Origin: an uncultured bacterium | Lineage (GTDB): Bacteria > Cyanobacteriota > Cyanobacteriia > CAZCXK01 | DNA: 24,790 bases | Assembly: GCA_964502605.1 (NCBI GenBank) | Contig: CAZCXK010000049.1 | Span: 1 to 24,790, forward strand | Direction of reading: 5' to 3' | In this document: positions 1,589 to 21,394 of the stretch, piece by piece | Numbering within the stretch: the stretch's first letter is position 1 | Layout: each line of letters opens with the position of its first letter | Notes under the pieces: model-generated | Told to the model about the DNA's origin: nothing | What the model saw: the letters and a program-made list of their open reading frames with translations, nothing else | Databases searched by the model: none | Position numbers and translations under genes: made by a program

Positions 1589-2683
1589 CTAAGACGAGAC
1601 CCACTTTTCAAGGTACTTATCAACTTTAACCAAGAACTTATTGTGATTTTGGTATGGAATGATTTCGACCTTCTTTAGGCGGCCCACTAAAATACCAGGA
1701 TGTCGCCCCTGAGATTTTGCAAAATCTTCCACCCTTTTCGCCGAAAAATATGGAGAAGTTTTGTCAACAAAATTGTTTAAGGCTTGCGCATCTAGTAGCC
1801 AGTTTGCTGCTAGTTGATTAGCCTCGGTTTCTTCTTGATTAACTTCCAAGTCATCCATATTGTCTAAATAGCTGCCCTCGTGACCTGCCACAATATGGCC
1901 TAGTTCGTGCATTAGCGTAAACCAAAAATTATCAATTCGCTTATATCTCAACGTCAGCGCAACCACCGGCCTGCCTTCTATGTGAAATGCTGCCCCATCT
2001 AAGTAGGTCTTATCCAAATGGGGCACAATGGCAAAATGTACGCCAAGGCTAAGAAGTTTATCTGGTACTAAAGCCACATTCTCTGCCTGAGCCGATAAAG
2101 CCAGAATTTCAGGAATCGCTGCCTCCAGCTTGGCTTGGTCAAAGGCAGTGAGCTTTTGAGCTCGCACAACCCTTTCAACCTGTTTCATCCAGGCGATCTG
2201 AGCCTGAGTCTCTGGGGCTCGCTTTTCAGATTGCCGACAGTTAACTGCCAGCTTTGGGGGCTCCCCAATCTGATCAATCTCGAAAAAACTACAAACCTGT
2301 TGCTCAAGTTCATCAATCGAGTTAGCCGATTCAATCCATCCCCGCTTAATCATCTCTGCGACCGGGGCAAAGCTGTAGAGACGGCTTTTACGAGCAATTT
2401 CACTCATCTCTGATGGGTTCTTAGCTTTCTTCTGGGCCACATGCAGCCGATATTTTGCCTCTAAGTTTGTCCAAAACTCAGCAGAGGTGCCCAATGCTTC
2501 AGCTAACTCAATCGCCGTCTCAGGTGTAATTTGCTTGTTTCCTTTGACGATGCCATTGATGGTTTGGTGAGGTCGCCCCATAATCTCGGCCAAGTCTTTT
2601 TGAGTCCATCCCCTGGCTTCGAGTTCTCGGTTCAAAATTCTTCCAGGCGGTGAAACCCTTGCTGGTGCTAATGTCTGAGTCAT
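1589..2683 (-). CDS. higA: HigA-type HTH (XRE-family) antitoxin fused to an ImmA/IrrE-family (COG2856) Zn metallopeptidase domain
   Basis: The N-terminus (ILNRELEARGWTQKDLAEIMGRPHQTINGIVKGNKQITPETAIELAEALGTSAEFWTNLEAKY) matches the HigA / VapI addiction-module antidote helix-turn-helix. The C-terminal half carries HEXXH plus a downstream Glu (FTLMHELGHIVAGHEG...EETEANQLAANWLL), the ImmA/IrrE metallopeptidase signature. A strong ribosome-binding site (GGGAGGAGAGG) precedes the ATG, which lies 24 nt downstream of the higB stop codon. Confidence 0.8.
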   Translation of the reverse strand: MTQTLAPARVSPPGRILNRELEARGWTQKDLAEIMGRPHQTINGIVKGNKQITPETAIELAEALGTSAEFWTNLEAKYRLHVAQKKAKNPSEMSEIARKSRLYSFAPVAEMIKRGWIESANSIDELEQQVCSFFEIDQIGEPPKLAVNCRQSEKRAPETQAQIAWMKQVERVVRAQKLTAFDQAKLEAAIPEILALSAQAENVALVPDKLLSLGVHFAIVPHLDKTYLDGAAFHIEGRPVVALTLRYKRIDNFWFTLMHELGHIVAGHEGSYLDNMDDLEVNQEETEANQLAANWLLDAQALNNFVDKTSPYFSAKRVEDFAKSQGRHPGILVGRLKKVEIIPYQNHNKFLVKVDKYLEKWVSS

Positions 2684-2707
2684 GCCTCTCCTCCCTTAGT
2701 GCCTGAT

Positions 2708-2998
2708 TCAGTGATAGTCTTCAATAGCAATGATCAGTAGATATCCTCCCTCTTCATCCTTCTCAATGGCGACAATTAGCCGCCACTGTTTGTTTAATCG
2801 TAGAGACCGTTCTCTTGGTCGTCCTTTGAGCTTTTCAAAGTGAAAGCCTTTTAGGGCGTATAGATCACGCTCATCTCTAGCAGCGGCGATCGCGTTCATG
2901 GCGTCAAAGAAATCGTCTATGACGTTAGGGTACTTATGGGCATTTTTCTCCTCGGTATAAAGAGCTTCTAGCCTTTTCTGCTTGAATTTGAACCTCAA
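2708..2998 (-). CDS. higB: HigB toxin (RelE/ParE superfamily, plasmid-maintenance-system killer protein)
   Basis: The 96-aa protein shows the HigB killer-protein pattern (MRFKFKQKRLEALY...LKGFHFEKLKGRPRE.SLRLNKQWRLIVAIE...IIAIEDYH), including the C-terminal EDYH seen in Proteus-type HigB. It appears to use a TTG start codon with a GGGAGG ribosome-binding site 9 nt upstream. It lies directly upstream of higA in the toxin-first order typical of higBA. Confidence 0.8.
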   Translation of the reverse strand: MRFKFKQKRLEALYTEEKNAHKYPNVIDDFFDAMNAIAAARDERDLYALKGFHFEKLKGRPRERSLRLNKQWRLIVAIEKDEEGGYLLIIAIEDYH

Positions 2999-3351
2999 GA
3001 GAATGCCTCCCCAACCGCAGTGACCGATTTTGGAACATCATAGCGTATACCGAATTCAGCGATGGGGTGAATCACTGAATATAGTTTATCGATTCTGGGT
3101 GAATTTTTGTATACAGGCTGACTTGTCAAGCGAGTTCAGGCTGTTTACCTCCACTTGCTCAGGAGTAAGGCGCTATGGATAGTGCCTCGTGTACGATACG
3201 GCTAGGTTAAGATCTAGATGTTGATTGTAAAGATATATTTGGAATTCTCTAAGGCGGTTGCTAGACTATATGACCTCTCCCGACAGGAGCCAGTTGTTTA
3301 GAATCGCCTCTAACCAGCCCACCCATCTCCTCATCCCCTTTTCTAGCAATC

Positions 3352-5277
3352 TCACAAGGGCGATCGCCTCCAAATCTTCAGCGCTCCATCCCAACTGCCG
3401 CTGACCAGAGTCGATGCCTCAGCAAACGCCACCGACCACACCCAACCCAAGTGGCCACTGAGCACCGTCAGACATTGATAGGTTTGCAAATCCCATAGGC
3501 GAATCGTTTTATCACTGCCTGCACTGGCTAACATCAACCCATCTGGGCTAAAGGCCACCGCATTCACGGCGCTGTTGTGCTCGACAAACTGATGCATCGG
3601 TTGACCGCTGTGCAAATTCCACAGGCGCACAGTTTGATCAGAACTGGCACTCGCCAGCAATGGCTTTGTGGGATGCATTGCCACCGACAAAATTTCAGCC
3701 GTGTGATCGGTCAGAGTGTGCATACAGCAACCTGTTTGGGTTTGCCACAGTCGAATCGTGTAATCGCGACTGCCACTGGCAAGGATAGCCCCATCGGGGC
3801 TGATAGCCGTGCTCAAGACCCAATGCTCATGCCCCGTCAGCGTGCGCGATATGGTACGTGTCGCGAGTTGCCAAATGCGGACGGTCTTATCTTGTGCTCC
3901 GCTAATCAAATGCGCCCCATCTGGACTAAAGGTAACCGTTCGCACCCAGTCGGTGTGCCCATTGAGAATGGCGATCGCCTCCCCAGTCTTTCGGTGCCAC
4001 AGGCGAATGGTGCGGTCGTTGCTGGCACTGGCAACGGTGACATTATCCGGGGCGATCGCCACCCCACGCACCCAACTAGTATGCCCCTCTAGCGTATGCA
4101 AGAGCGTGCCATCCGGCACTGACCAAAGCTTTACGGTTTTGTCGCCGCTGCCACTCGCCAAGACACGGCCATCACCACTCACAGCCACCGATCGCACCCA
4201 AGCGGCATGAGCCGCAACGGTTTGCAAACACTGCCATGCCGATGTGGAGGCATTTGGAGCAGGGGCCGGTGACATCAGCTCATTGGCCGCAGAGCGTGAC
4301 ACATCTGAGATAAACAGCGCCGCATCCTGGCGCGATCGCCTCGGTGATATCGGCACAAACGTAGGGCGATCGGAAACATCTGACGCACTGCTCTGTAAAT
4401 CAGTAATCACGGCCTCAGCCGATCGATATCGGTCGGTAATCTGAACCTGGAGCAGCTTGTCCAAGATTTGCCCTAGCGCCTCACTGATGGGGTGCTTGAG
4501 ATGGGGTCGCCATGTCCATCCGGGAGGCTGACGACGAAACATGGCGGTGGGAGGTTTTTCAGTCAATAGCTGAATGCAAGTCACCCCCAAACTAAAGAGA
4601 TCACTCGCGAAGGTGGCACGCCCCACGGCTTGCTCAGGGGCAGTGTAGCCGCGACTGCCGATTTTAGTGCCTGCCTGCAACAGATTGCTGGGAGTTGCAA
4701 ATTTGGCAGCGCCAAAATCAACCAGCACGAGCTGGTCATCCGCTTGACGACAGATGATGTTTTCTGGCTTGATATCGCGGTGAATCACCTGATGCGTATG
4801 GATGAAATGCAGCACAGGCAATAAGTGATTGAGCAATTGCCGAATCTGGCTTTCATCGAAGGCTCTCGATCGGCGCAGCATCTGCTGCAAGTTTTGCCCG
4901 TCAATAAATTCTTGGATCAGGTATTGCCGCCGATCTTGCTCAAAGTGAGCCAGCAGTTCTGGAATTTGAGGATGCTGGCCCAACTCTTCTAGTCGCATCG
5001 CTTCTTGCTGAAAGAGGGCGATCGCTTGATCAAACTCATCGTCTCGCTTCGACTGAATAAACGATTGCTTGATGACGCAATAGGGTTTAGACGGCTTATG
5101 TTCGTCAATGGCGAGAAACGTGCGGCCAAAGCCTCCTTGCCCAATGGGCTTCTGGGCACGATAGCGATCGCCCAATAGCAACTTTGCCCCGCAGTTTGAA
5201 CAAAATTTTGCCTGCTCTGGGTGTGGCGATCGCTGATGACCCGGTTCAAGACAGTCTGGGTTGAGGCAATAGCTCAT
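3352..5277 (-). CDS. Ser/Thr protein kinase with an N-terminal zinc ribbon and C-terminal WD40 repeats (7 blades)
   Basis: The kinase motifs GQGGFGRT, VIKQ, HRDIKPENI and DFG are present. The N-terminus MSYCLNPDC...CSNCGAKLLLGDRYRA is the zinc-ribbon start typical of cyanobacterial Ser/Thr kinases. The C-terminal half holds repeated GH..WV..VA.SPDG....SGS.D.T.RLW WD40 units. The ORF track extends to 5367 (MSVNQG...), but the conserved N-terminus begins at the internal Met encoded at 5277, so I prefer that start. Confidence 0.85.
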   Translation of the reverse strand: MSYCLNPDCLEPGHQRSPHPEQAKFCSNCGAKLLLGDRYRAQKPIGQGGFGRTFLAIDEHKPSKPYCVIKQSFIQSKRDDEFDQAIALFQQEAMRLEELGQHPQIPELLAHFEQDRRQYLIQEFIDGQNLQQMLRRSRAFDESQIRQLLNHLLPVLHFIHTHQVIHRDIKPENIICRQADDQLVLVDFGAAKFATPSNLLQAGTKIGSRGYTAPEQAVGRATFASDLFSLGVTCIQLLTEKPPTAMFRRQPPGWTWRPHLKHPISEALGQILDKLLQVQITDRYRSAEAVITDLQSSASDVSDRPTFVPISPRRSRQDAALFISDVSRSAANELMSPAPAPNASTSAWQCLQTVAAHAAWVRSVAVSGDGRVLASGSGDKTVKLWSVPDGTLLHTLEGHTSWVRGVAIAPDNVTVASASNDRTIRLWHRKTGEAIAILNGHTDWVRTVTFSPDGAHLISGAQDKTVRIWQLATRTISRTLTGHEHWVLSTAISPDGAILASGSRDYTIRLWQTQTGCCMHTLTDHTAEILSVAMHPTKPLLASASSDQTVRLWNLHSGQPMHQFVEHNSAVNAVAFSPDGLMLASAGSDKTIRLWDLQTYQCLTVLSGHLGWVWSVAFAEASTLVSGSWDGALKIWRRSPL

Positions 5278-10519: not shown

Positions 10520-11593
10520 TCAATACTTAAAAGAGATGATTCTCGGTGCAGTAATGGCAAGACGATTAGCATAGTCCCAGGTCGCCGCTGGAGCGCTGTC
10601 GCCCCTCCAAGCGGCAGTCAACTGATCGGCAAGATGATTCAACGGTATGCCAGTTTTACCATTTTTATCGATTAATGCGGCTGAGGGGTTTTCCTCCTGA
10701 TTGTGGTGTGAGTGTTGCCAGTCAAGTGGTAGAGCGATCGCCCCGTGATGAGCTCCCAAGAGAGCACCGAGCAGGGCGCAGGCGCTTGAACTGATTGCAG
10801 CCCCTGATGCACGACTAAGAAGAAAAAGCAAGCGCCGCATGGCTACGTCAGGTTCGGCTGGAGTCCCTAAAAAGCCATAGAGTGCAGCCAAGCTTGAGCA
10901 AGTGGCTGGGAGAGCTAACGCATCATCTGAGACGGTTCCCCTGACAATTTGCCCCATGGCGGTCAAAGCCGAACCTTCAGAGTGCATTAGGGTTTGCAGG
11001 GCGATCAGCTGAGCCGTCCAGCCAGATGAGTCGGGTGCTGCTAATGAACTCTCAATTAAGTACTGCATCAGGCGATCAGGACGTTGCGGTTCACGTAACC
11101 CCCAGGCAAGTGCGTTGAGTATCGTCATAACAGCAGGGATGAGATGTTCAGATACCGACCAACTGGTAGCGAGGCGATAGACGGTATGACGCAAACTATC
11201 GAGATCGTCATGAAACACGATAGCCAGAGGCAGAGTGGCGATCGCCAGTTGCCCTGCATCAACATTAACAACAGCGGTCTGGGGCGCAATCTCTCTAAAG
11301 TAATTGAGTTCAGATGGGTCTTGCGATCGGCCTGACAGTAGCGCCTGGGGCAGCCCCTCCTCAAGTTGGGGCTCCTGAGACGCAACCGATTGCACATCCA
11401 GCCGCTGCACGTTGACCCGTCCCCATCGCCCCATGATGTAGCCATTAGTCAAGGTCAGAGCTGACGTGACCCACCAGGGCTGGCCGAGGCCAGACAGAGA
11501 AGTACCTCTCCACAGACCCTGGGTCGATCGCTCGATACTGCTTCCAATAGCCATGCCCAAGAGCAGGCCCCGGACGGGTTGAGAATTATACAT
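10520..11593 (-). CDS. ADP-ribosylglycohydrolase (ARH/DraG)-like protein, possibly catalytically degenerate
   Basis: The N-terminus GLLLGMAIGSSIE has the shape of the ARH G-rich motif (GxxLGxAxGDALG). The C-terminus SSSACALLGALLGAHHGAIALPLDW resembles the ARH motif DTDTxAAIAGALAGAYYG..IP..W. The conserved Asp/Thr metal ligands appear replaced by Ser. The gene is co-oriented with the 7TM-HD gene and 135 nt upstream of it. Confidence 0.5.
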   Translation of the reverse strand: MYNSQPVRGLLLGMAIGSSIERSTQGLWRGTSLSGLGQPWWVTSALTLTNGYIMGRWGRVNVQRLDVQSVASQEPQLEEGLPQALLSGRSQDPSELNYFREIAPQTAVVNVDAGQLAIATLPLAIVFHDDLDSLRHTVYRLATSWSVSEHLIPAVMTILNALAWGLREPQRPDRLMQYLIESSLAAPDSSGWTAQLIALQTLMHSEGSALTAMGQIVRGTVSDDALALPATCSSLAALYGFLGTPAEPDVAMRRLLFLLSRASGAAISSSACALLGALLGAHHGAIALPLDWQHSHHNQEENPSAALIDKNGKTGIPLNHLADQLTAAWRGDSAPAATWDYANRLAITAPRIISFKY

Positions 11594-12671: not shown

Positions 12672-15332
12672 ATGGATATTCTCGATTTTTCGGTTGCGAA
12701 CGACTGGGGCAGTGGCTTCACTGGCAGTCTGTCAATTACCAACCCAAACCCAACGGCTCTCAATCAATGGGTCGTTGAATTTGAAGCTCCATTTGAAATT
12801 ACAGACATTTGGAATGCTGAAATTATCAGTCGTGAGGGCAATCGTTATATCATTCGCAATGCCAATTGGAACGGGGCGATCGCCTCTGGTCAAACGGTTA
12901 CATTTGGCTTCAATGGCAAGAAAGCAACCGGGGTGACGCTAGAACCCCAAAATTATAAATTTAACGGAGTCGCGCTCGATCCTGGTCCTGCTCCCGCTGA
13001 GCCACCGTTTGCGCTGCTGCCTGAACTGGCGATCGCTGACACCAGCGTCGTTGAGGCTAACAATGCCCAAGCCAAGTTTGTGATTAACCTCTCAGAGCCC
13101 AGCACTCAGAACATCTCGGTCGAATATTCGACAAACTCACTCACTGCAAAGGCTGGTTCTGACTACCGCTCAAAGTCGGGCACGCTCACGTTTGCCCCTG
13201 GAGAAACGTCTAAAACAGTGTCAGTTGCCGTGTTAAATGACACCCTCGTTGAAAACTCAGAAACGTTTGAACTCAATCTAGCCCGAGCAAATAACGCAAC
13301 GATTGCCAGCGGCAAAGGAATTGCCACCATCTTGGACGACGATGAGGCCACGCCTACTCCTGCTCCCGCGCCTGTGCCTGCTCCCGCGCCTGCGCCTGCT
13401 CCCGCGCCTACCCCCGCGCCTGTGCCTGCTCCCGATTCAACATCTCCATCATCTGAGTCAAGCGTTGATTTTTCGGTTGCGAATAACTGGGGCAGTGGCT
13501 TTACGGCTAATCTATCGTTTACCAATGCTGGCAATGCAGCGCTCAACGGTTGGACGTTAGAATTTAGCGCTCCCTTTGAAATGACGAATATCTGGGGTGC
13601 TGAGCTAGTGCGTAAAGAGGGCGATCGCTATGTGATTAGTCCTGCTAGTTGGAATAGCTCTGTCGCCCCCGGACAAACGATTTCATTTGGCTTTAATGCC
13701 AACGGTGCCGCAACAGAACCAACGAGCTATGAACTCAACGGCTCTCCCCTATCTGCACCTCCATCTGCACCTCCAGCGGATAACCCTGAAGACGATCCGG
13801 CTCCATCTCCTCCCCCAGTGGCCGAGACGCCAGTAGACAACACCCCCGATAGCTCCAGTGAGCCGAATGAGCCCATTGATTCAGGTGAGCCAATCACTCC
13901 AGATGCGTCTGCTGACCCGCCCTCTCCTGACCCCACGGCTCCCGCGCCTGGGCCACAGTCTGGAGATTTTAATTATGGTGAAGCGCTGCAAAAGTCGCTG
14001 TTATTCATCGAAGCACAGCGGTCAGGGCCATTGCCTGACGACACGCGCATCGAATGGCGTGGGGATTCAGCCGTCAATGATGGCGCTGATGTGGGTCTTG
14101 ACCTGTCGGGTGGCTATTATGACGCGGGCGATCATGTCAAGTTTGGCTTCCCTATGGCATCATCCATGACCATGCTGAGTTGGGGCGTTGTGGAATATCG
14201 GGACGGGTATGCTCAAAGTGGTCAGCTTGATGAAGCCTTAGAGGCAATCAAGTGGGGCGCAGATTATATTCTCAAAGCACATGTGACCGATAGCCAGGGC
14301 ACGAAAGAGTTTTGGGGACAGGTCGGCAATGGCAACATTGACCATGCTTACTGGGGAACTGCCGAAACCATGACCATGGAGCGTCCCGCTTACAAGATTG
14401 ATCGGCAAAATCCAGGCTCAGATTTAGCGGCTGAGTCGGCGGCGGCTCTGGCCTCAGCCTCGATTGCCTTCAAAACAGCCGATCCAGACTACGCCGATCG
14501 ACTCTTGACCAACGCCAAACAGCTGTTTGAGTTTGCCGATCAATACCGAGGGAAATATTCCGACTCCATCACTGATGCGAGATCGTTTTACAACTCCTGG
14601 AGCGGCTATATTGACGAGTTAGTGTGGGGTGCGACATGGCTCTATAAAGCTACCGGCGAACAGAAATATCTGAACAAAGCCGAACAGCTCTATCAGGGGC
14701 TCAACCCTCAATGGACTCACAACTGGGACGACAAGTCTTATGGCGCTGCTGTGCTATTGGCTCAAGAAACCGGGAAGGCTCGCTATCGTAACGACGTTGA
14801 AGGCTGGCTCGACTATTGGTCAGATTCCAGCGGTGATGGGGTCAACTATACTTCTGGAGGTCTGGCATGGCTGAGCCAGTGGGGATCACTTCGCTATAGT
14901 TCTACAACGGCGTTTATCGCGGGTGTTTATAGCGACACGGTCAACGATAAGGGCGATCGCTACTCCAATTTTGCCGAAAACCAAATCGACTACATTCTGG
15001 GTGAAAATCCTAATAACCTTAGCTACATGGTTGGGTTTGGCGACAGCTACCCACTCAACCCCCACCATCGCAACGCCCACGGAGGCGGCAGCATTAATGA
15101 TCCGGCACCCAATGACAACATTCTCTTTGGGGCTCTAGTCGGTGGCCCTGCATCACCCAACGACAATGACTATGCTGACGTGCGCTCCGACTATATTCGC
15201 AATGAAGTCGCACTTGACTACAATGCTGGATTTACCGGGGCTTTGGCTCGTATGTATGACATGTTTGGTGGCCAACCTCTCAGTGATGCTCAACTCAATG
15301 CGTTACCTGGGATCGTTGTAGCTGATGCCTGA
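12672..15332 (+). CDS. Multi-domain glycoside hydrolase family 9 endoglucanase (cellulase): CBM2 - Calx-beta - Pro/Ala linker - CBM2 - Pro-rich linker - GH9 catalytic domain
   Basis: GH9 catalytic motifs are present (DLSGGYYDAGDHVKFGFPMA, HHRNAHGG, ALVGGP, RSDYIRNEVALDYNAGFTGALA). Two paralogous CBM2-like modules occur (DFSVANDWGSGFTGSLSITN...WNAEI...WNGAIASGQTVTFGFNG and the copy at about 13440-13700). A Calx-beta module is present (VEYSTNSLTAKAGSDYRSKSGTLTFAPGETSKTVSVAVLNDTLVENSETFELNL), and the linkers include (PAPAPV)n. An in-frame TAA lies 2 codons upstream of the ATG, so the protein has no N-terminal signal peptide. Confidence 0.9.
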   Translation: MDILDFSVANDWGSGFTGSLSITNPNPTALNQWVVEFEAPFEITDIWNAEIISREGNRYIIRNANWNGAIASGQTVTFGFNGKKATGVTLEPQNYKFNGVALDPGPAPAEPPFALLPELAIADTSVVEANNAQAKFVINLSEPSTQNISVEYSTNSLTAKAGSDYRSKSGTLTFAPGETSKTVSVAVLNDTLVENSETFELNLARANNATIASGKGIATILDDDEATPTPAPAPVPAPAPAPAPAPTPAPVPAPDSTSPSSESSVDFSVANNWGSGFTANLSFTNAGNAALNGWTLEFSAPFEMTNIWGAELVRKEGDRYVISPASWNSSVAPGQTISFGFNANGAATEPTSYELNGSPLSAPPSAPPADNPEDDPAPSPPPVAETPVDNTPDSSSEPNEPIDSGEPITPDASADPPSPDPTAPAPGPQSGDFNYGEALQKSLLFIEAQRSGPLPDDTRIEWRGDSAVNDGADVGLDLSGGYYDAGDHVKFGFPMASSMTMLSWGVVEYRDGYAQSGQLDEALEAIKWGADYILKAHVTDSQGTKEFWGQVGNGNIDHAYWGTAETMTMERPAYKIDRQNPGSDLAAESAAALASASIAFKTADPDYADRLLTNAKQLFEFADQYRGKYSDSITDARSFYNSWSGYIDELVWGATWLYKATGEQKYLNKAEQLYQGLNPQWTHNWDDKSYGAAVLLAQETGKARYRNDVEGWLDYWSDSSGDGVNYTSGGLAWLSQWGSLRYSSTTAFIAGVYSDTVNDKGDRYSNFAENQIDYILGENPNNLSYMVGFGDSYPLNPHHRNAHGGGSINDPAPNDNILFGALVGGPASPNDNDYADVRSDYIRNEVALDYNAGFTGALARMYDMFGGQPLSDAQLNALPGIVVADA

Positions 15333-16460: not shown

Positions 16461-18674
16461 ATGGGCGAAAAGCTTGATTTTGTCGAGGTCAAATTAGATG
16501 GCGTTGGTGGTGTTGATGGTCTGGATGGTGCCTATAGCATTAGCATCAGTCCCGATGGCAAACATGTTTATGTGGCCGGAGATATTGATAATAAAGTTGC
16601 CGTATTCTCGCGCAATTTAGTAGACGGCACCCTTACCTTTGTCGAGGCTCTGGCCCACGGTGGTGATCCCAAGACCAGCCAGCCTCAGTTTGCTGGTGAC
16701 ACTGTTAGCGTTAGTCCAGACGGTGAGTTTGTCTATGCAACTAGCTTTTCGACTGATACCGTCACGGTGTTTGCTCGTAATGCAACTACCGGGGCACTGA
16801 CTCAGACTCAGGTGATTGCTGATTCTGGAGCCATCTCAAATTCTCTGCATGGCGTGTCTGGCATCCAAGTTAGCCCTGATGGCGAGTTTGCCTATGCTAC
16901 GGGCTATTTCAGTGATGCGATCGCCGTTTTTTCGCGCAACCCTACAACGGGCGCACTGACGTTTGTTCAACAGCAGAAGGATAATACCGCTGGTGTAGAC
17001 GGGTTAGACGGTGCTAGCAGCATCACCCTCAGCCCCGACGGAAAGTTTGTCTATGCCACAGGTGATAACGACAATGCGATCGCCGTTTTTTCGCGCAACG
17101 CAACGACCGGCTTGCTCACCTTTGTCGAGTTTCAAAAAGATAGTGTGGGCGGGGTTGATGGCCTCAGAGACGCCAGGAGCCTCAGCCTCAGCCCTGATGG
17201 CAAATTTGTTTATGCCGTGGGAGAAGGTGACGATGGCATTGCCGTATTTTCCCGGAATGCAACTACGGGTAGGCTCACCTTTGTTGAAGCTGTGAAAGAT
17301 GGTGTCAGCGGGGTCGATGGCCTTGATGGTGTCTATAATATCAACATCAGCTTAGACGGCAAGTTTGTCTATGCTGCAGGTAATAATGAAGACGCGATCG
17401 TCATGTTTTCGAGAAACACGACGACCGGGAAACTCACCTTTGTGAGAGTCCGCAAAAACAACGTGGATGGAGTCACAGGGCTAGATGGTGTGACCAACAT
17501 TCAAATTAGCCCCGATGGCAAGTTTTTCTATGCATCAGGCTACAACGACGACGCCATTTCGGTATTCTCAACCTTGGGCACCAATGCTCTACCGACATCT
17601 ACCAACGGCACGGTCACAGGTCTAGAAGATGCAATCTATCAGTTCAAGACGTCTGACTTTGCCTTTACTGATGCTGATGAGGGAGATACTTTTCAAACCC
17701 TAGAAATCACATCGCTAGAAACGGCGGGTAGTCTTTTCTTTGACGCTAACAACAATAATATTGAGAACTCTGGTGAAGCGGTCAGCCTCGGCCAAGTTAT
17801 TGCGGCTGCCAATCTCACCAACTTAAAATTTCGCCCGGTAGCCAATGCCTTTGGTAGCCCCTACGCCACCTTTGGATTCAAAGTTGGAGATGGGATTGAT
17901 TCTAGTGCTAGTGCCTACACGATGACGATCAACATTCTGGATCAGCCTGAACCCAGCCCCGGCGGTAGTGGTGGTAGTGGTGGCAGTAGTGGCAGCGGCA
18001 CTGGGCCACTCCAGTTTGGCGTGGCTCCTGACCCCATCAATTTCAGAGGGGGCAAGCGCGGTGCAAGATTAAAAGGGACAGGACGGGCAGATACGCTGCG
18101 CGGCACCAAAGCCAATGACACGCTGTTAGGTAAAGGCGGGGGCGATCGCCTGATTGCCAAGGGCGGTAAAGATATTGTCAAAGGTGGCGGCGGCAGTGAT
18201 TTGATCAAGGGTGGCGGTGGCAACGATCGCCTCTCTGGACAAGCGGGTAATGATACGATCAGTGGTGGTGGCGGGGATGATTTGCTGCAAGGAGGTGGTG
18301 GCAACGATCGCCTCAGAGGGGGCGGTGGTAACGATGTTTTAGTTGGTCAGAGAGGCGCTGACACTCTAATTGGCGGCGGTGGTGCCGATTTGTATGTTTT
18401 CAACAGCGTGGCCGATGGCATGGATACGATCATTGGCTTCCAAGTGGGGCAAGACCTGATCGACATCCGCTCAATTTTTGCCCAAAGTGCCTTTGCAGCA
18501 CCATCGCGCACTGCTCAGTTTCGACAGTTTGTCAAGATCGAACAGTTGGGTGTTAATACGGTGATTAGCCTCGACCAAGATGGCACTGGAGCGGGTACGG
18601 TGTTTCAACCCCTAGCCACATTGACCAATATTGCGGCGAGCACGGTGCAATCAACTAGCTTCGTAGTGGCCTGA
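16461..18674 (+). CDS. Beta-propeller (lactonase-type 7-bladed repeats) protein with a cadherin/Ig-like module and C-terminal RTX calcium-binding nonapeptide repeats (probable type I secretion substrate)
   Basis: There are at least 7 repeats of the type SPDGKFVYA.G..D.AIAVFSRN.TTG.LTFV. A Gly/Ser linker (GGSGGSGGSSGSG) follows. RTX GGxGxDxL repeats then appear (GGGGSDLIKGGGGNDRLSGQAGNDTISGGGGDDLLQGGGGNDRLRGGGGNDVL...), with an acidic/hydrophobic C-terminus and no N-terminal signal peptide. Confidence 0.85.
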   Translation: MGEKLDFVEVKLDGVGGVDGLDGAYSISISPDGKHVYVAGDIDNKVAVFSRNLVDGTLTFVEALAHGGDPKTSQPQFAGDTVSVSPDGEFVYATSFSTDTVTVFARNATTGALTQTQVIADSGAISNSLHGVSGIQVSPDGEFAYATGYFSDAIAVFSRNPTTGALTFVQQQKDNTAGVDGLDGASSITLSPDGKFVYATGDNDNAIAVFSRNATTGLLTFVEFQKDSVGGVDGLRDARSLSLSPDGKFVYAVGEGDDGIAVFSRNATTGRLTFVEAVKDGVSGVDGLDGVYNINISLDGKFVYAAGNNEDAIVMFSRNTTTGKLTFVRVRKNNVDGVTGLDGVTNIQISPDGKFFYASGYNDDAISVFSTLGTNALPTSTNGTVTGLEDAIYQFKTSDFAFTDADEGDTFQTLEITSLETAGSLFFDANNNNIENSGEAVSLGQVIAAANLTNLKFRPVANAFGSPYATFGFKVGDGIDSSASAYTMTINILDQPEPSPGGSGGSGGSSGSGTGPLQFGVAPDPINFRGGKRGARLKGTGRADTLRGTKANDTLLGKGGGDRLIAKGGKDIVKGGGGSDLIKGGGGNDRLSGQAGNDTISGGGGDDLLQGGGGNDRLRGGGGNDVLVGQRGADTLIGGGGADLYVFNSVADGMDTIIGFQVGQDLIDIRSIFAQSAFAAPSRTAQFRQFVKIEQLGVNTVISLDQDGTGAGTVFQPLATLTNIAASTVQSTSFVVA

Positions 18675-20801: not shown

Positions 20802-20938
20802 AGTACTTAGAACAGCCGATATGCATGAGTCTTCAACTATCTAATCCCATGTAAAACGTGGGGTACTTGCGTCTCAGTTGGTTCTCAGGATTCTATGTGA
20901 AGATGCAAGCAACACGCTACTTAGTAGGATGGTGCAGC

Positions 20939-21394
20939 ATGACAACCAGCACTCAATATCAGCGCATCCGATCGAATTGGACAGTTGAAGACTTGCATCG
21001 GCGCGTTTCTCTAACGCTATTGCTGACGCGCATCAGCATCTTCATCATGATGATAATTTGGGTGATTGATAAATTCGTCAATCCTCGACATTTTGCTGCC
21101 GTTTCAGCAGGGTTTTATGGCATCAGCGGTATGAGTAATGTGGCAGCCCATATTGCAGGAGCGATTCAACTGGCAATTGTAATTGGGTTTGTATTGGGGT
21201 TTCGCAAACGCATTACCTACGGGTTGGTGTTCCTAATGCACGCTGCCTCGACGGTGATCTCCTATAAGCAATATCTCAGCCCATTCGCCGCAGATAGCCC
21301 CAACATCTTATTTTTTGCCGCATGGCCTGTGCTAGCAGCCTGTTTCGCACTTTATTATCTGCGCGACTTAGACACACGCTTGGCAATTGATTGA
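20939..21394 (+). CDS. Small integral membrane protein (hypothetical, 3-4 transmembrane helices)
   Basis: The ORF track starts at 20858, but the N-terminal 27 aa there look like non-coding read-through. The internal ATG at 20939 (MTTSTQYQRIRSNW...) gives a 151-aa hydrophobic protein immediately downstream of shc. Confidence 0.5.
   Translation: MTTSTQYQRIRSNWTVEDLHRRVSLTLLLTRISIFIMMIIWVIDKFVNPRHFAAVSAGFYGISGMSNVAAHIAGAIQLAIVIGFVLGFRKRITYGLVFLMHAASTVISYKQYLSPFAADSPNILFFAAWPVLAACFALYYLRDLDTRLAID

Follow-up and report, generated by a model that had tools for sequence, protein, structure and literature searches.

A toxin-first gene pair in a cyanobacterial contig encodes a putative GraT/HigB-type RNase and an Xre-COG2856 fusion protein

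This study concerns a two-gene module located at positions 1589-2998 of contig CAZCXK010000049.1 (assembly GCA_964502605.1), which was obtained from an uncultured cyanobacterium. The whole 24,790-nucleotide (nt) stretch that was analyzed is referred to below as the window. The module is made of two co-directional open reading frames (ORFs) of the minus strand, named here gene A and gene B, whose products (proteins A and B) are respectively a putative toxin and a fusion of a helix-turn-helix (HTH) domain with a zinc metallopeptidase (Table 1). The first-pass annotation of this DNA had described a toxin-first order with a gap of 24 nt and a strong ribosome-binding site in front of the second gene, as well as an antitoxin of 364 amino acids (aa) instead of about 100 aa, and all of these features were found again on reading the sequence. 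Gene A ends with a TGA codon at 2708-2710, the ribosome-binding site AAGGGAGGAG occupies positions 2688-2697 and ends 4 nt short of the ATG of gene B, and the second ORF has the announced length. In close relatives, the spacers between A and B measure ~24-28 nt. A third gene was not found after gene B: in the 187 nt downstream no ORF reaches 40 aa, and this stretch is followed by a Band_7 gene in convergent orientation.

Table 1. Features of the module and of its upstream region, in window coordinates.
Feature	Position	Strand	Remarks
Gene A, putative toxin	2708..2998	-	96-aa ORF, HigB/GraT family (RelE superfamily), predicted ribosome-dependent mRNA endonuclease, TTG start, C-terminal D94-Y95-H96
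Gene B, HTH-peptidase fusion	1589..2683	-	364-aa ORF, ATG start
A-B spacer	2684..2707	-	24 nt, holds the ribosome-binding site AAGGGAGGAG of gene B
HigA/GraA-type Xre HTH domain, B aa ~7-92	2408..2665	-	Predicted to bind DNA, and probably the toxin too
Linker and helical middle region, B aa ~93-215	2039..2407	-	No known family match
M78/ImmA-IrrE/CapP-like metallopeptidase and C-terminal helical part, B aa ~216-364	1592..2038	-	
HEXXH zinc-binding/catalytic motif, H259-E-L-G-H263	1895..1909	-	Sequence reading
E285-T-E-A-N289, candidate third zinc ligand motif of the COG2856 family	1817..1831	-	
Shine-Dalgarno GGGGAGG of gene A	3006..3012	-	7 nt before the TTG, sequence reading
Candidate -10 box TATGAT	3037..3042	-	39-44 nt upstream of the gene A start, inferred from upstream alignments
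Candidate operator	3054..3104		Nested palindromes and half-site, 56-106 nt upstream of the gene A start

The two genes differ in their start signals. The TTG start of gene A (2996-2998) is supported by the N-terminus MRFKFK of its product, because relatives conserve the residues from the first one on. TTG is also the start codon in 19 of the 23 close relatives of the cyanobacterial clade, cyanobacterial relatives keep a G-rich Shine-Dalgarno (SD) sequence together with it, and a non-ATG start of gene A was counted in 43 of 59 loci overall. Gene B, for its part, starts with ATG behind a strong SD. A weak start for gene A combined with a strong start for gene B fits a toxin that is held below the level of its partner, and this bias looks like a conserved means of adjusting how much of each protein is made relative to the other. 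Another ORF starting with TTG (44 aa, 2995..3129, minus strand), the TGA of which overlaps the TTG of gene A, was considered as a leader gene and rejected. It is probably no gene, because it covers both the candidate operator and the candidate -10 box.

Protein A matched the family PF05015 (HigB-like_toxin) with an E-value of 2e-9 and 38.3 bits (cut-off 27), and phrog_3066, described as a toxin of a toxin-antitoxin (TA) system, with an E-value of 6.5e-9. A profile made of 28 A homologues matched GraT of Pseudomonas putida (6f8s_B, E 1.1e-12) and HigB of Proteus vulgaris (4mct_B, E 3.8e-6). The assignment of the 96-aa ORF to the HigB/RelE family, which had been made at first from the letters alone, is thus borne out by a hidden Markov model (HMM) search with a match above threshold. 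Residues S65, R67, L68 and R73 are kept in 70-71 of 71 homologues, R73 in all 71, and the C-terminus of the family reads D-Y-H in 51/71 homologues and takes a permuted H-Y form in 20/71. In P. vulgaris HigB, Arg73 contacts the scissile phosphate, and the loss of the C-terminal residues Asp90-Tyr91-His92 is what cuts cleavage most (PMC5027501). Protein A contains the equivalents of these residues (R73 and D94-Y95-H96). At the position of the general base His54 of P. vulgaris HigB, it carries E55, a Glu that is invariant in the A family, with H53 adjacent, and the same holds for GraT. The conservation of the RNase residues R73, R67, S65 and D-Y-H argues for protein A being an active RNase under selection; the pattern looks like that of purifying selection, and protein A is probably an active variant of the HigB toxin whose residue set is not identical.

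The N-terminal part of protein B was assigned to HTH_3 (E 1.4e-11, aa 20-70, above the curated cut-off) and to the HigA family TIGR02607 of NCBIfam (E 6.6e-16, 57.9 bits, cut-off 47.7). Its first ~90 residues matched the HigA/GraA chains 4mcx_A, 3trb_A and 6f8s_A with E-values from 1e-9 to 3.5e-12, the match to 6f8s_A, a chain of the GraTA complex, being at 1.1e-9. As protein A matches chain B of 6f8s and protein B matches chain A, both partners are homologous to one solved complex, GraTA. Invariant residues of the HTH include E20, R24-G-W-T-Q28, R37-P38 and Q40. A HigA-type Xre HTH thus lies directly downstream of the higB-like gene, and the HigA-like part of protein B is limited to aa ~7-92 of a protein far longer than a single-domain HigA of ~100 aa. 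An AlphaFold2 model based on an alignment of 61 sequences (mean predicted local distance difference test, pLDDT, 88.4; predicted template modeling score 0.73) divides the protein into three parts. The HTH comes first, then a less confidently modeled linker (aa ~81-100) with a helical middle region behind it, and last an alpha/beta peptidase. The linker is poorly conserved at aa ~85-100, and the pLDDT is 65-72 over aa 81-100. The middle region contains a conserved motif, RLYS-x-AP-x-x-E-M-I-K-R-G-W-I (aa 98-117), which is common to the B protein of locus L108, a true PD-lambda-2-type locus found among the viral contigs (PD-lambda-2 is a phage defense system of Escherichia coli, compared below). 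The C-terminal helical part holds a conserved H-P-G motif at aa 328-330.

The peptidase domain matched Peptidase_M78 (PF06114) over aa 223-304, with an E-value of 5.9e-9 and 36.2 bits (cut-off 22). Residues H259, E260 and H263 are invariant in 61/61 close homologues and in 24/24 diverse ones, and E285 and A288 show no or almost no variation in either alignment. In a profile alignment, HELGH and E-x-x-A-N of protein B fall on HELGH and E-A-Q-A-D of CapP. Searches of the PDB by phmmer or with a full-length profile gave no significant match for the peptidase part, and a profile of the C-terminal domain gave weak matches only (9vzy_A, E 0.087; CapP, E 0.87). For this reason, the M78 assignment rests on Pfam and on a comparison of folds, in which the peptidase domain resembles solved members of the M78/COG2856 family. 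The first-pass annotation had proposed an HTH of the HigA type, an ImmA/IrrE-type peptidase and an HEXXH located at the catalytic position of that family, and the three proposals stood: both HTH families and PF06114 were matched above threshold, and the motif is invariant and aligned with that of CapP. Neither a missing M78 match, nor a misplaced HEXXH, nor a 96-aa product foreign to HigB/RelE was encountered. Also, the PDB entry 9vzy_A, whose alignment to the B family covers the HEXXH region, is the solved structure of a 393-aa protein named 'HTH cro/C1-type domain-containing protein'. Possibly, no HTH-M78 fusion of the B kind had been solved before it; a literature search found no paper on this entry.

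Upstream of gene A, a palindrome ATTCAGCGAT-N7-ATCACTGAAT was found at 3054-3080, which encloses TTCAG-N7-GTGAA at 3055-3071, and an extra copy of the half-site GGGTGAAT lies at 3097-3104. The inner element belongs to a 17-nt palindrome, TTCAS-N7-STGAA, which is found ~55-85 nt upstream of the toxin gene, in the window as in relatives. Of 74 loci, 29 (the window included) carry it in the 150 nt upstream of gene A, for an expectation of 0.0087 per 150 nt of background, and 28 related loci, which represent at least five phyla, have it at the same relative position; the position is conserved across Cyanobacteria, Chloroflexi, Elusimicrobia, Acidobacteria and Planctomycetes. Such conservation suggests that the palindrome is probably the operator recognized by the HTH of protein B. 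The pattern occurs twice in the window (0.13 expected). The second exact match, TTCAGTCAATAGCTGAA at 4558-4574, is located inside the Ser/Thr-kinase/WD40 gene upstream of the module and is probably due to chance, two matches being obtained in 1 of 100 shuffles. As for the promoter, the Nostoc relatives have TATAAT at the position equivalent to TATGAT of the window, with the palindrome just upstream of the box. A consensus promoter scan called nothing near the candidate operator, TATGAT included, so that the -10 assignment rests on the comparison with relatives only.

Protein B has more than 3,595 homologues in databases, of very uniform length (~360 aa), many of which NCBI or JGI annotate as 'HigA family addiction module antitoxin'. 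We compared 80 genome loci from Cyanobacteria, Chloroflexi, Elusimicrobia, Actinobacteria, Acidobacteria, Nitrospirae, Planctomycetes and Proteobacteria. A homologue of A was present directly upstream of the B homologue in ~75 of these 80 loci, which indicates that the pairing is not due to chance. Also, across 63 loci, identity to the window protein is correlated between A and B (r=0.91). The pair is inherited, and moves, as a unit. The flanking genes are not common even to relatives at 71-74% identity. Homologues of B were found on 98 plasmids and, at full length, in 27 viral or prophage contigs, and one lies near the integrase of the temperate Achromobacter phage CF418P1. The window has a GC content of 51% and contains 45 copies of the HIP1 octamer GCGATCGC, which marks it as cyanobacterial, and its nearest relatives are Nodosilinea and Acaryochloris. 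The exact contig stems from run SRR3310984.

The related loci present several variations in gene content. At some Nostoc loci (L020, 3343-5143; also L025, L026, L028, L029 and L032), a Gp49/RelE-type toxin gene (PF05973) takes the place of the HigB-like gene. With the same divergent Ser/Thr kinase gene on its upstream side, the locus seems to be in synteny with the HigB-type loci, and the toxin seems to have been exchanged in place next to a constant B 'hub'. Such an exchange of partners at a syntenic locus matches the picture of a hub ImmA-protease antitoxin drawn by Ernits 2023. In loci of the L020 type, the cognate HI1420-type antidote domain (PF21716) reads in frame into B without a stop, giving an ORF of 489 aa, and an SD-like GGGGAG followed by ATT stands at the usual start of B; this ORF may be either a fusion or a B gene with an unusual start codon. 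Another variation concerns the proteobacterial/prophage clade of B (35-42% identity to the window protein), in which a conserved third gene of ~155-175 aa follows B. This ~160-aa gene is 9-19 nt away from B or overlaps its end (L063-L080, L082-L107 and L124), and in the Achromobacter phage CF418P1 (L124) it occupies positions 4626-5111. Its product had no match in Pfam, PADLOC or PHROGs, and the gene differs from the PF14350 third gene of PD-lambda-2. An HMM of this family found no match in the window, and the conserved third gene was never seen in the clade of the window module. Lastly, a Brocadiaceae metagenome-assembled genome (L062, 2534-4196) contains a B homologue without an upstream HigB gene, placed directly after an ORF resembling the specificity (S) subunit of a type I restriction-modification system (PF01420), which suggests that B can be linked to other defense genes.

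From these data, we read the module as a chromosomal, horizontally mobile, toxin-first operon of the type II TA kind, made of a RelE-family toxin and an Xre-COG2856 fusion, in which a GraT/HigB-type RNase would be freed by the signal-triggered cleavage of protein B; our confidence in this reading is a little above even. It is supported by the conserved active sites, by the co-inheritance of the two genes, by the operator, by the start-codon bias and by the defense conferred by tested relatives. What the sequences show directly is the gene structure, the domain identities, the preserved catalytic residues, the joint inheritance of the two genes and the conserved palindrome; DNA binding, the binding of A to B, peptidase activity, its substrate, its trigger and a role in defense are attributed here by homology and analogy. 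The HigA/GraA-type HTH of protein B would bind TTCAS-N7-STGAA in the promoter and repress the operon. Judging from the homologous GraTA and HigBA complexes, the same domain would also hold and neutralize the RNase (protein A). Upon a signal from phage infection, DNA damage or some other stress, the M78 peptidase would become active, as in ImmA-ImmR, IrrE-DdrO and CapP-CapH. The peptidase would cut an HTH protein, most likely protein B itself. This cut would take place in cis, or in trans between the members of a dimer, and would fall at or beyond the flexible and unconserved linker that follows the HTH. Cleavage of B would both derepress the operon and free A, which would cleave ribosome-bound mRNA and stop translation and growth, as an abortive infection or a growth arrest.

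Several points weigh against this reading. The self-cleavage of protein B is a proposal made by analogy. The Glu found at the His54 position implies that the catalytic mechanism of A is not identical to that of P. vulgaris HigB. The third gene of PD-lambda-2 (PF14350) is required for defense (PMC9519451), and the window contains no third gene. No defense island or mobile-element context was found in the window, where the neighbors are housekeeping genes. Above all, in PD-lambda-2 the HTH-peptidase protein B is toxic when alone and A rescues (PMC9519451), that is, the roles are opposite to those proposed here; the formula 'HigB is the toxin and the fusion is the antitoxin' is therefore not to be taken for granted. 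The roles could be reversed or mutual in the window as well: free protein B would be harmful, through host proteolysis or mis-regulation, protein A would be its inhibitor or the two would restrain each other, and the trigger would separate them. We regard this as rather unlikely. In its favor, protein B shares the entire region from the HTH through the middle part to the peptidase with the PD-lambda-2-type protein of L108 (32% identity, E 9e-40), its peptidase active site is invariant, and earlier TA catalogues assign the toxin role to COG2856 proteins and the antitoxin role to Xre. However, the strongly conserved RNase residues of A would be superfluous in a mere inhibitor, the start signals, weak for A and strong for B, are the reverse of those expected if A were an antitoxin made in excess, and B occurs without A at some loci, for example L062. 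Moreover, A of PD-lambda-2 has no detectable similarity to A of the window, and this difference of family (PF09907 versus PF05015) means that the toxicity result may not transfer.

The isolation of the module among housekeeping genes without defense genes nearby, the many plasmid-borne homologues and the non-syntenic flanks at 71-74% identity, which are typical of mobile TA cassettes, would suit a plain addiction or selfish stabilization module, in which HigB would be the toxin and B the antitoxin, and the peptidase would act as a scaffold, a dimerization part or an autoregulatory part without sensing or defense. We consider this quite unlikely, as the invariance of HEXXH and of the Glu over wide phylogenetic distances argues for a working enzyme and not for a scaffold, and as tested relatives protect against phages. 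A peptidase of the ImmA/IrrE/CapP type next to an HTH of the Xre type also recalls the stress regulators ImmR/ImmA and IrrE/DdrO, and protein B might be a fused repressor and anti-repressor of a mobile element or of a damage regulon, with HigB as an incidental passenger. The phage copy near an integrase and the second palindrome match at 4558-4574 could be cited in favor of such a regulator, but B is tied to a RelE-superfamily toxin gene at nearly every locus, the palindrome is essentially confined to the operon's own promoter, the HTH belongs specifically to the HigA/GraA antitoxin subfamily (TIGR02607), and the window is devoid of integrase, phage or integrative and conjugative element (ICE) genes; this explanation thus appears very improbable. 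Finally, the two-gene cyanobacterial clade could form a self-sufficient sensor-effector switch in which A and B are both active enzymes in mutual check, the HigA domain blocking the RNase and HigB keeping the peptidase off. A phage or stress signal would lead to the cutting of B at the linker after the HTH, to derepression of the operon and to release of the RNase. In such a switch, the third genes found elsewhere (PF14350 in E. coli, the ~160-aa protein in the proteobacterial/phage clade) would be exchangeable trigger adaptors, and the B core would be a hub for different toxins, as is suggested by the in-place replacement of HigB by Gp49-RelE in Nostoc. We hold this scheme to be unlikely as a whole; if true, it would also account for the toxicity of PD-lambda-2 B alone.

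The neighbors of the module are of the housekeeping or ordinary chromosomal kind: Band_7, a Ser/Thr kinase with WD40 repeats, FKBP, a 7TM-HD receptor, a GH9 cellulase, a squalene-hopene cyclase and ClpB. No integrase, phage or conjugation gene was found in the 24.8 kb, and Rfam and tRNA scans of the window gave no match. The GH9 cellulase (12672-15332, plus strand) is of the secreted type, with two CBM2 modules and a Calx-beta domain, and is followed by a lactonase-type beta-propeller with RTX repeats (16461-18674, plus strand); this pair is notable for a cyanobacterial genome and unrelated to the module. Two ORFs, at 10520-11593 (minus strand, 357 aa) and 20858-21394 (plus strand, 178 aa), had no Pfam match at E <= 1e-5.

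Novelty does not lie in the architecture, which was predicted in 2009 and put to partial test in 2022-2023. It is common, is annotated automatically in thousands of genomes and will not surprise a specialist. The questions raised by HTH-peptidase partners are what the peptidase cuts, what triggers it and which of the two partners is the toxin, and the answer given by PD-lambda-2 to the last of these is paradoxical. To this field, the window module adds a clean and minimal two-gene version with a GraT/HigB-type toxin that is structurally well understood, and a clearly conserved candidate operator. Also, its related loci offer natural variants (toxin swap, lineage-specific third genes) that could be used for comparison. 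Cyanobacteria contain many such modules, and phage defense of the TA type has hardly been tested in them. The value of the window module as a minimal model is moderate, and the current understanding is unchanged unless the mechanism is worked out experimentally.

Among known systems, GraTA of P. putida and HigBA of P. vulgaris share with the window module a toxin-first operon with a palindromic operator upstream (a candidate one in the window), and protein A resembles GraT/HigB, and the N-terminus of protein B resembles GraA/HigA, by sequence and fold. In contrast, HigA and GraA are proteins of ~100 aa, whereas protein B carries ~270 further residues that include the zinc peptidase. In ImmA-ImmR (ICEBs1), IrrE/PprI-DdrO (Deinococcus) and CapP-CapH of the cyclic oligonucleotide-based antiphage signaling system (CBASS), the protease and the repressor are separate proteins, whereas protein B is one chain; these pairs control a mobile element, a repair regulon or a defense operon, and the window operon encodes an RNase toxin. 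A switch of the ImmR/ImmA type sits in an integrative element or a prophage, and neither was found in the 24.8-kb window.

PD-lambda-2 was described in E. coli ECOR42 (Vassallo 2022) with a HigB-like A, a HigA-HTH-peptidase B and a third gene C, and it defends against lambda-vir by abortive infection (PMC9519451). As in the window, a HigB-like gene comes first and is followed by a fusion of a HigA-HTH with an ImmA/IrrE peptidase. According to the supplement of that study, its components belong to PF09907 (A), PF06114 (B) and PF14350, Beta_protein (C) (PMC9519451). Protein B of the window matched the PD-Lambda-2_B model of PADLOC over aa 20-353 with an E-value of 2.9e-51, whereas the B protein of L108 reached 2.7e-134, which places the window protein in a separate subfamily. 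PD-lambda-2-type B, as seen in L108, also has ~65 extra N-terminal residues, an extension that is missing from protein B of the window. The toxins differ as well: A of PD-lambda-2 is of the PF09907 or E. coli K-12 HigB type (L108 A, E 2e-29), and A of the window is of the PF05015 type, that of GraT and P. vulgaris HigB. BLASTP gave no alignment between the two, and neither protein A (E limit 0.1) nor the A and third-gene products of its relatives matched the PADLOC library, PD-Lambda-2 models included.

RosmerTA (RmrT/RmrA; Millman 2022; Ernits 2023, PMC10440598) combines an HTH/ImmA-protease antitoxin with varied toxins, and some of these systems are phage-encoded. Like protein B, its antitoxin is an Xre HTH with an ImmA-type zinc peptidase that serves as a hub for exchangeable toxins, and its gene order is variable, toxin-first being common. 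The characterized RmrT toxins are, however, of unknown fold or membrane-depolarizing, and are not HigB RNases. Protein B gave partial matches to at least 12 RmrA models, each limited to the HTH or to the peptidase, with E-values from 5e-10 to 5e-7 (best 5.4e-10), that is, ~40 orders of magnitude weaker than its match to PD-Lambda-2_B.

The class as a whole was recognized by Makarova, Wolf and Koonin (2009, PMC2701414), who listed RelE- and PIN-family toxins adjoining Xre-COG2856 (HTH) fusions as a three-component TA class and suggested the Xre repressor or antitoxin as the substrate of the protease. The first-pass annotation had credited this paper with the association between toxins and HTH-COG2856 fusions, and rightly so, as RelE-family toxins are listed there beside such fusions. 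The signal-triggered, self-cleaving antitoxin that it suggested is essentially the hypothesis of 2009 and remains plausible by analogy. It had also presented the class as experimentally uncharacterized, which is no longer tenable, PD-lambda-2 and RosmerTA having already been tested as defense systems; for newer mechanistic work on HigB with HigA-M78 systems or on PD-lambda-2, a literature search gave only surveys. The window module has exactly the architecture of the 2009 class, of which it is a cyanobacterial instance without essential difference. Within this known and partly characterized class, it represents a distinct two-gene subfamily of the GraT type.

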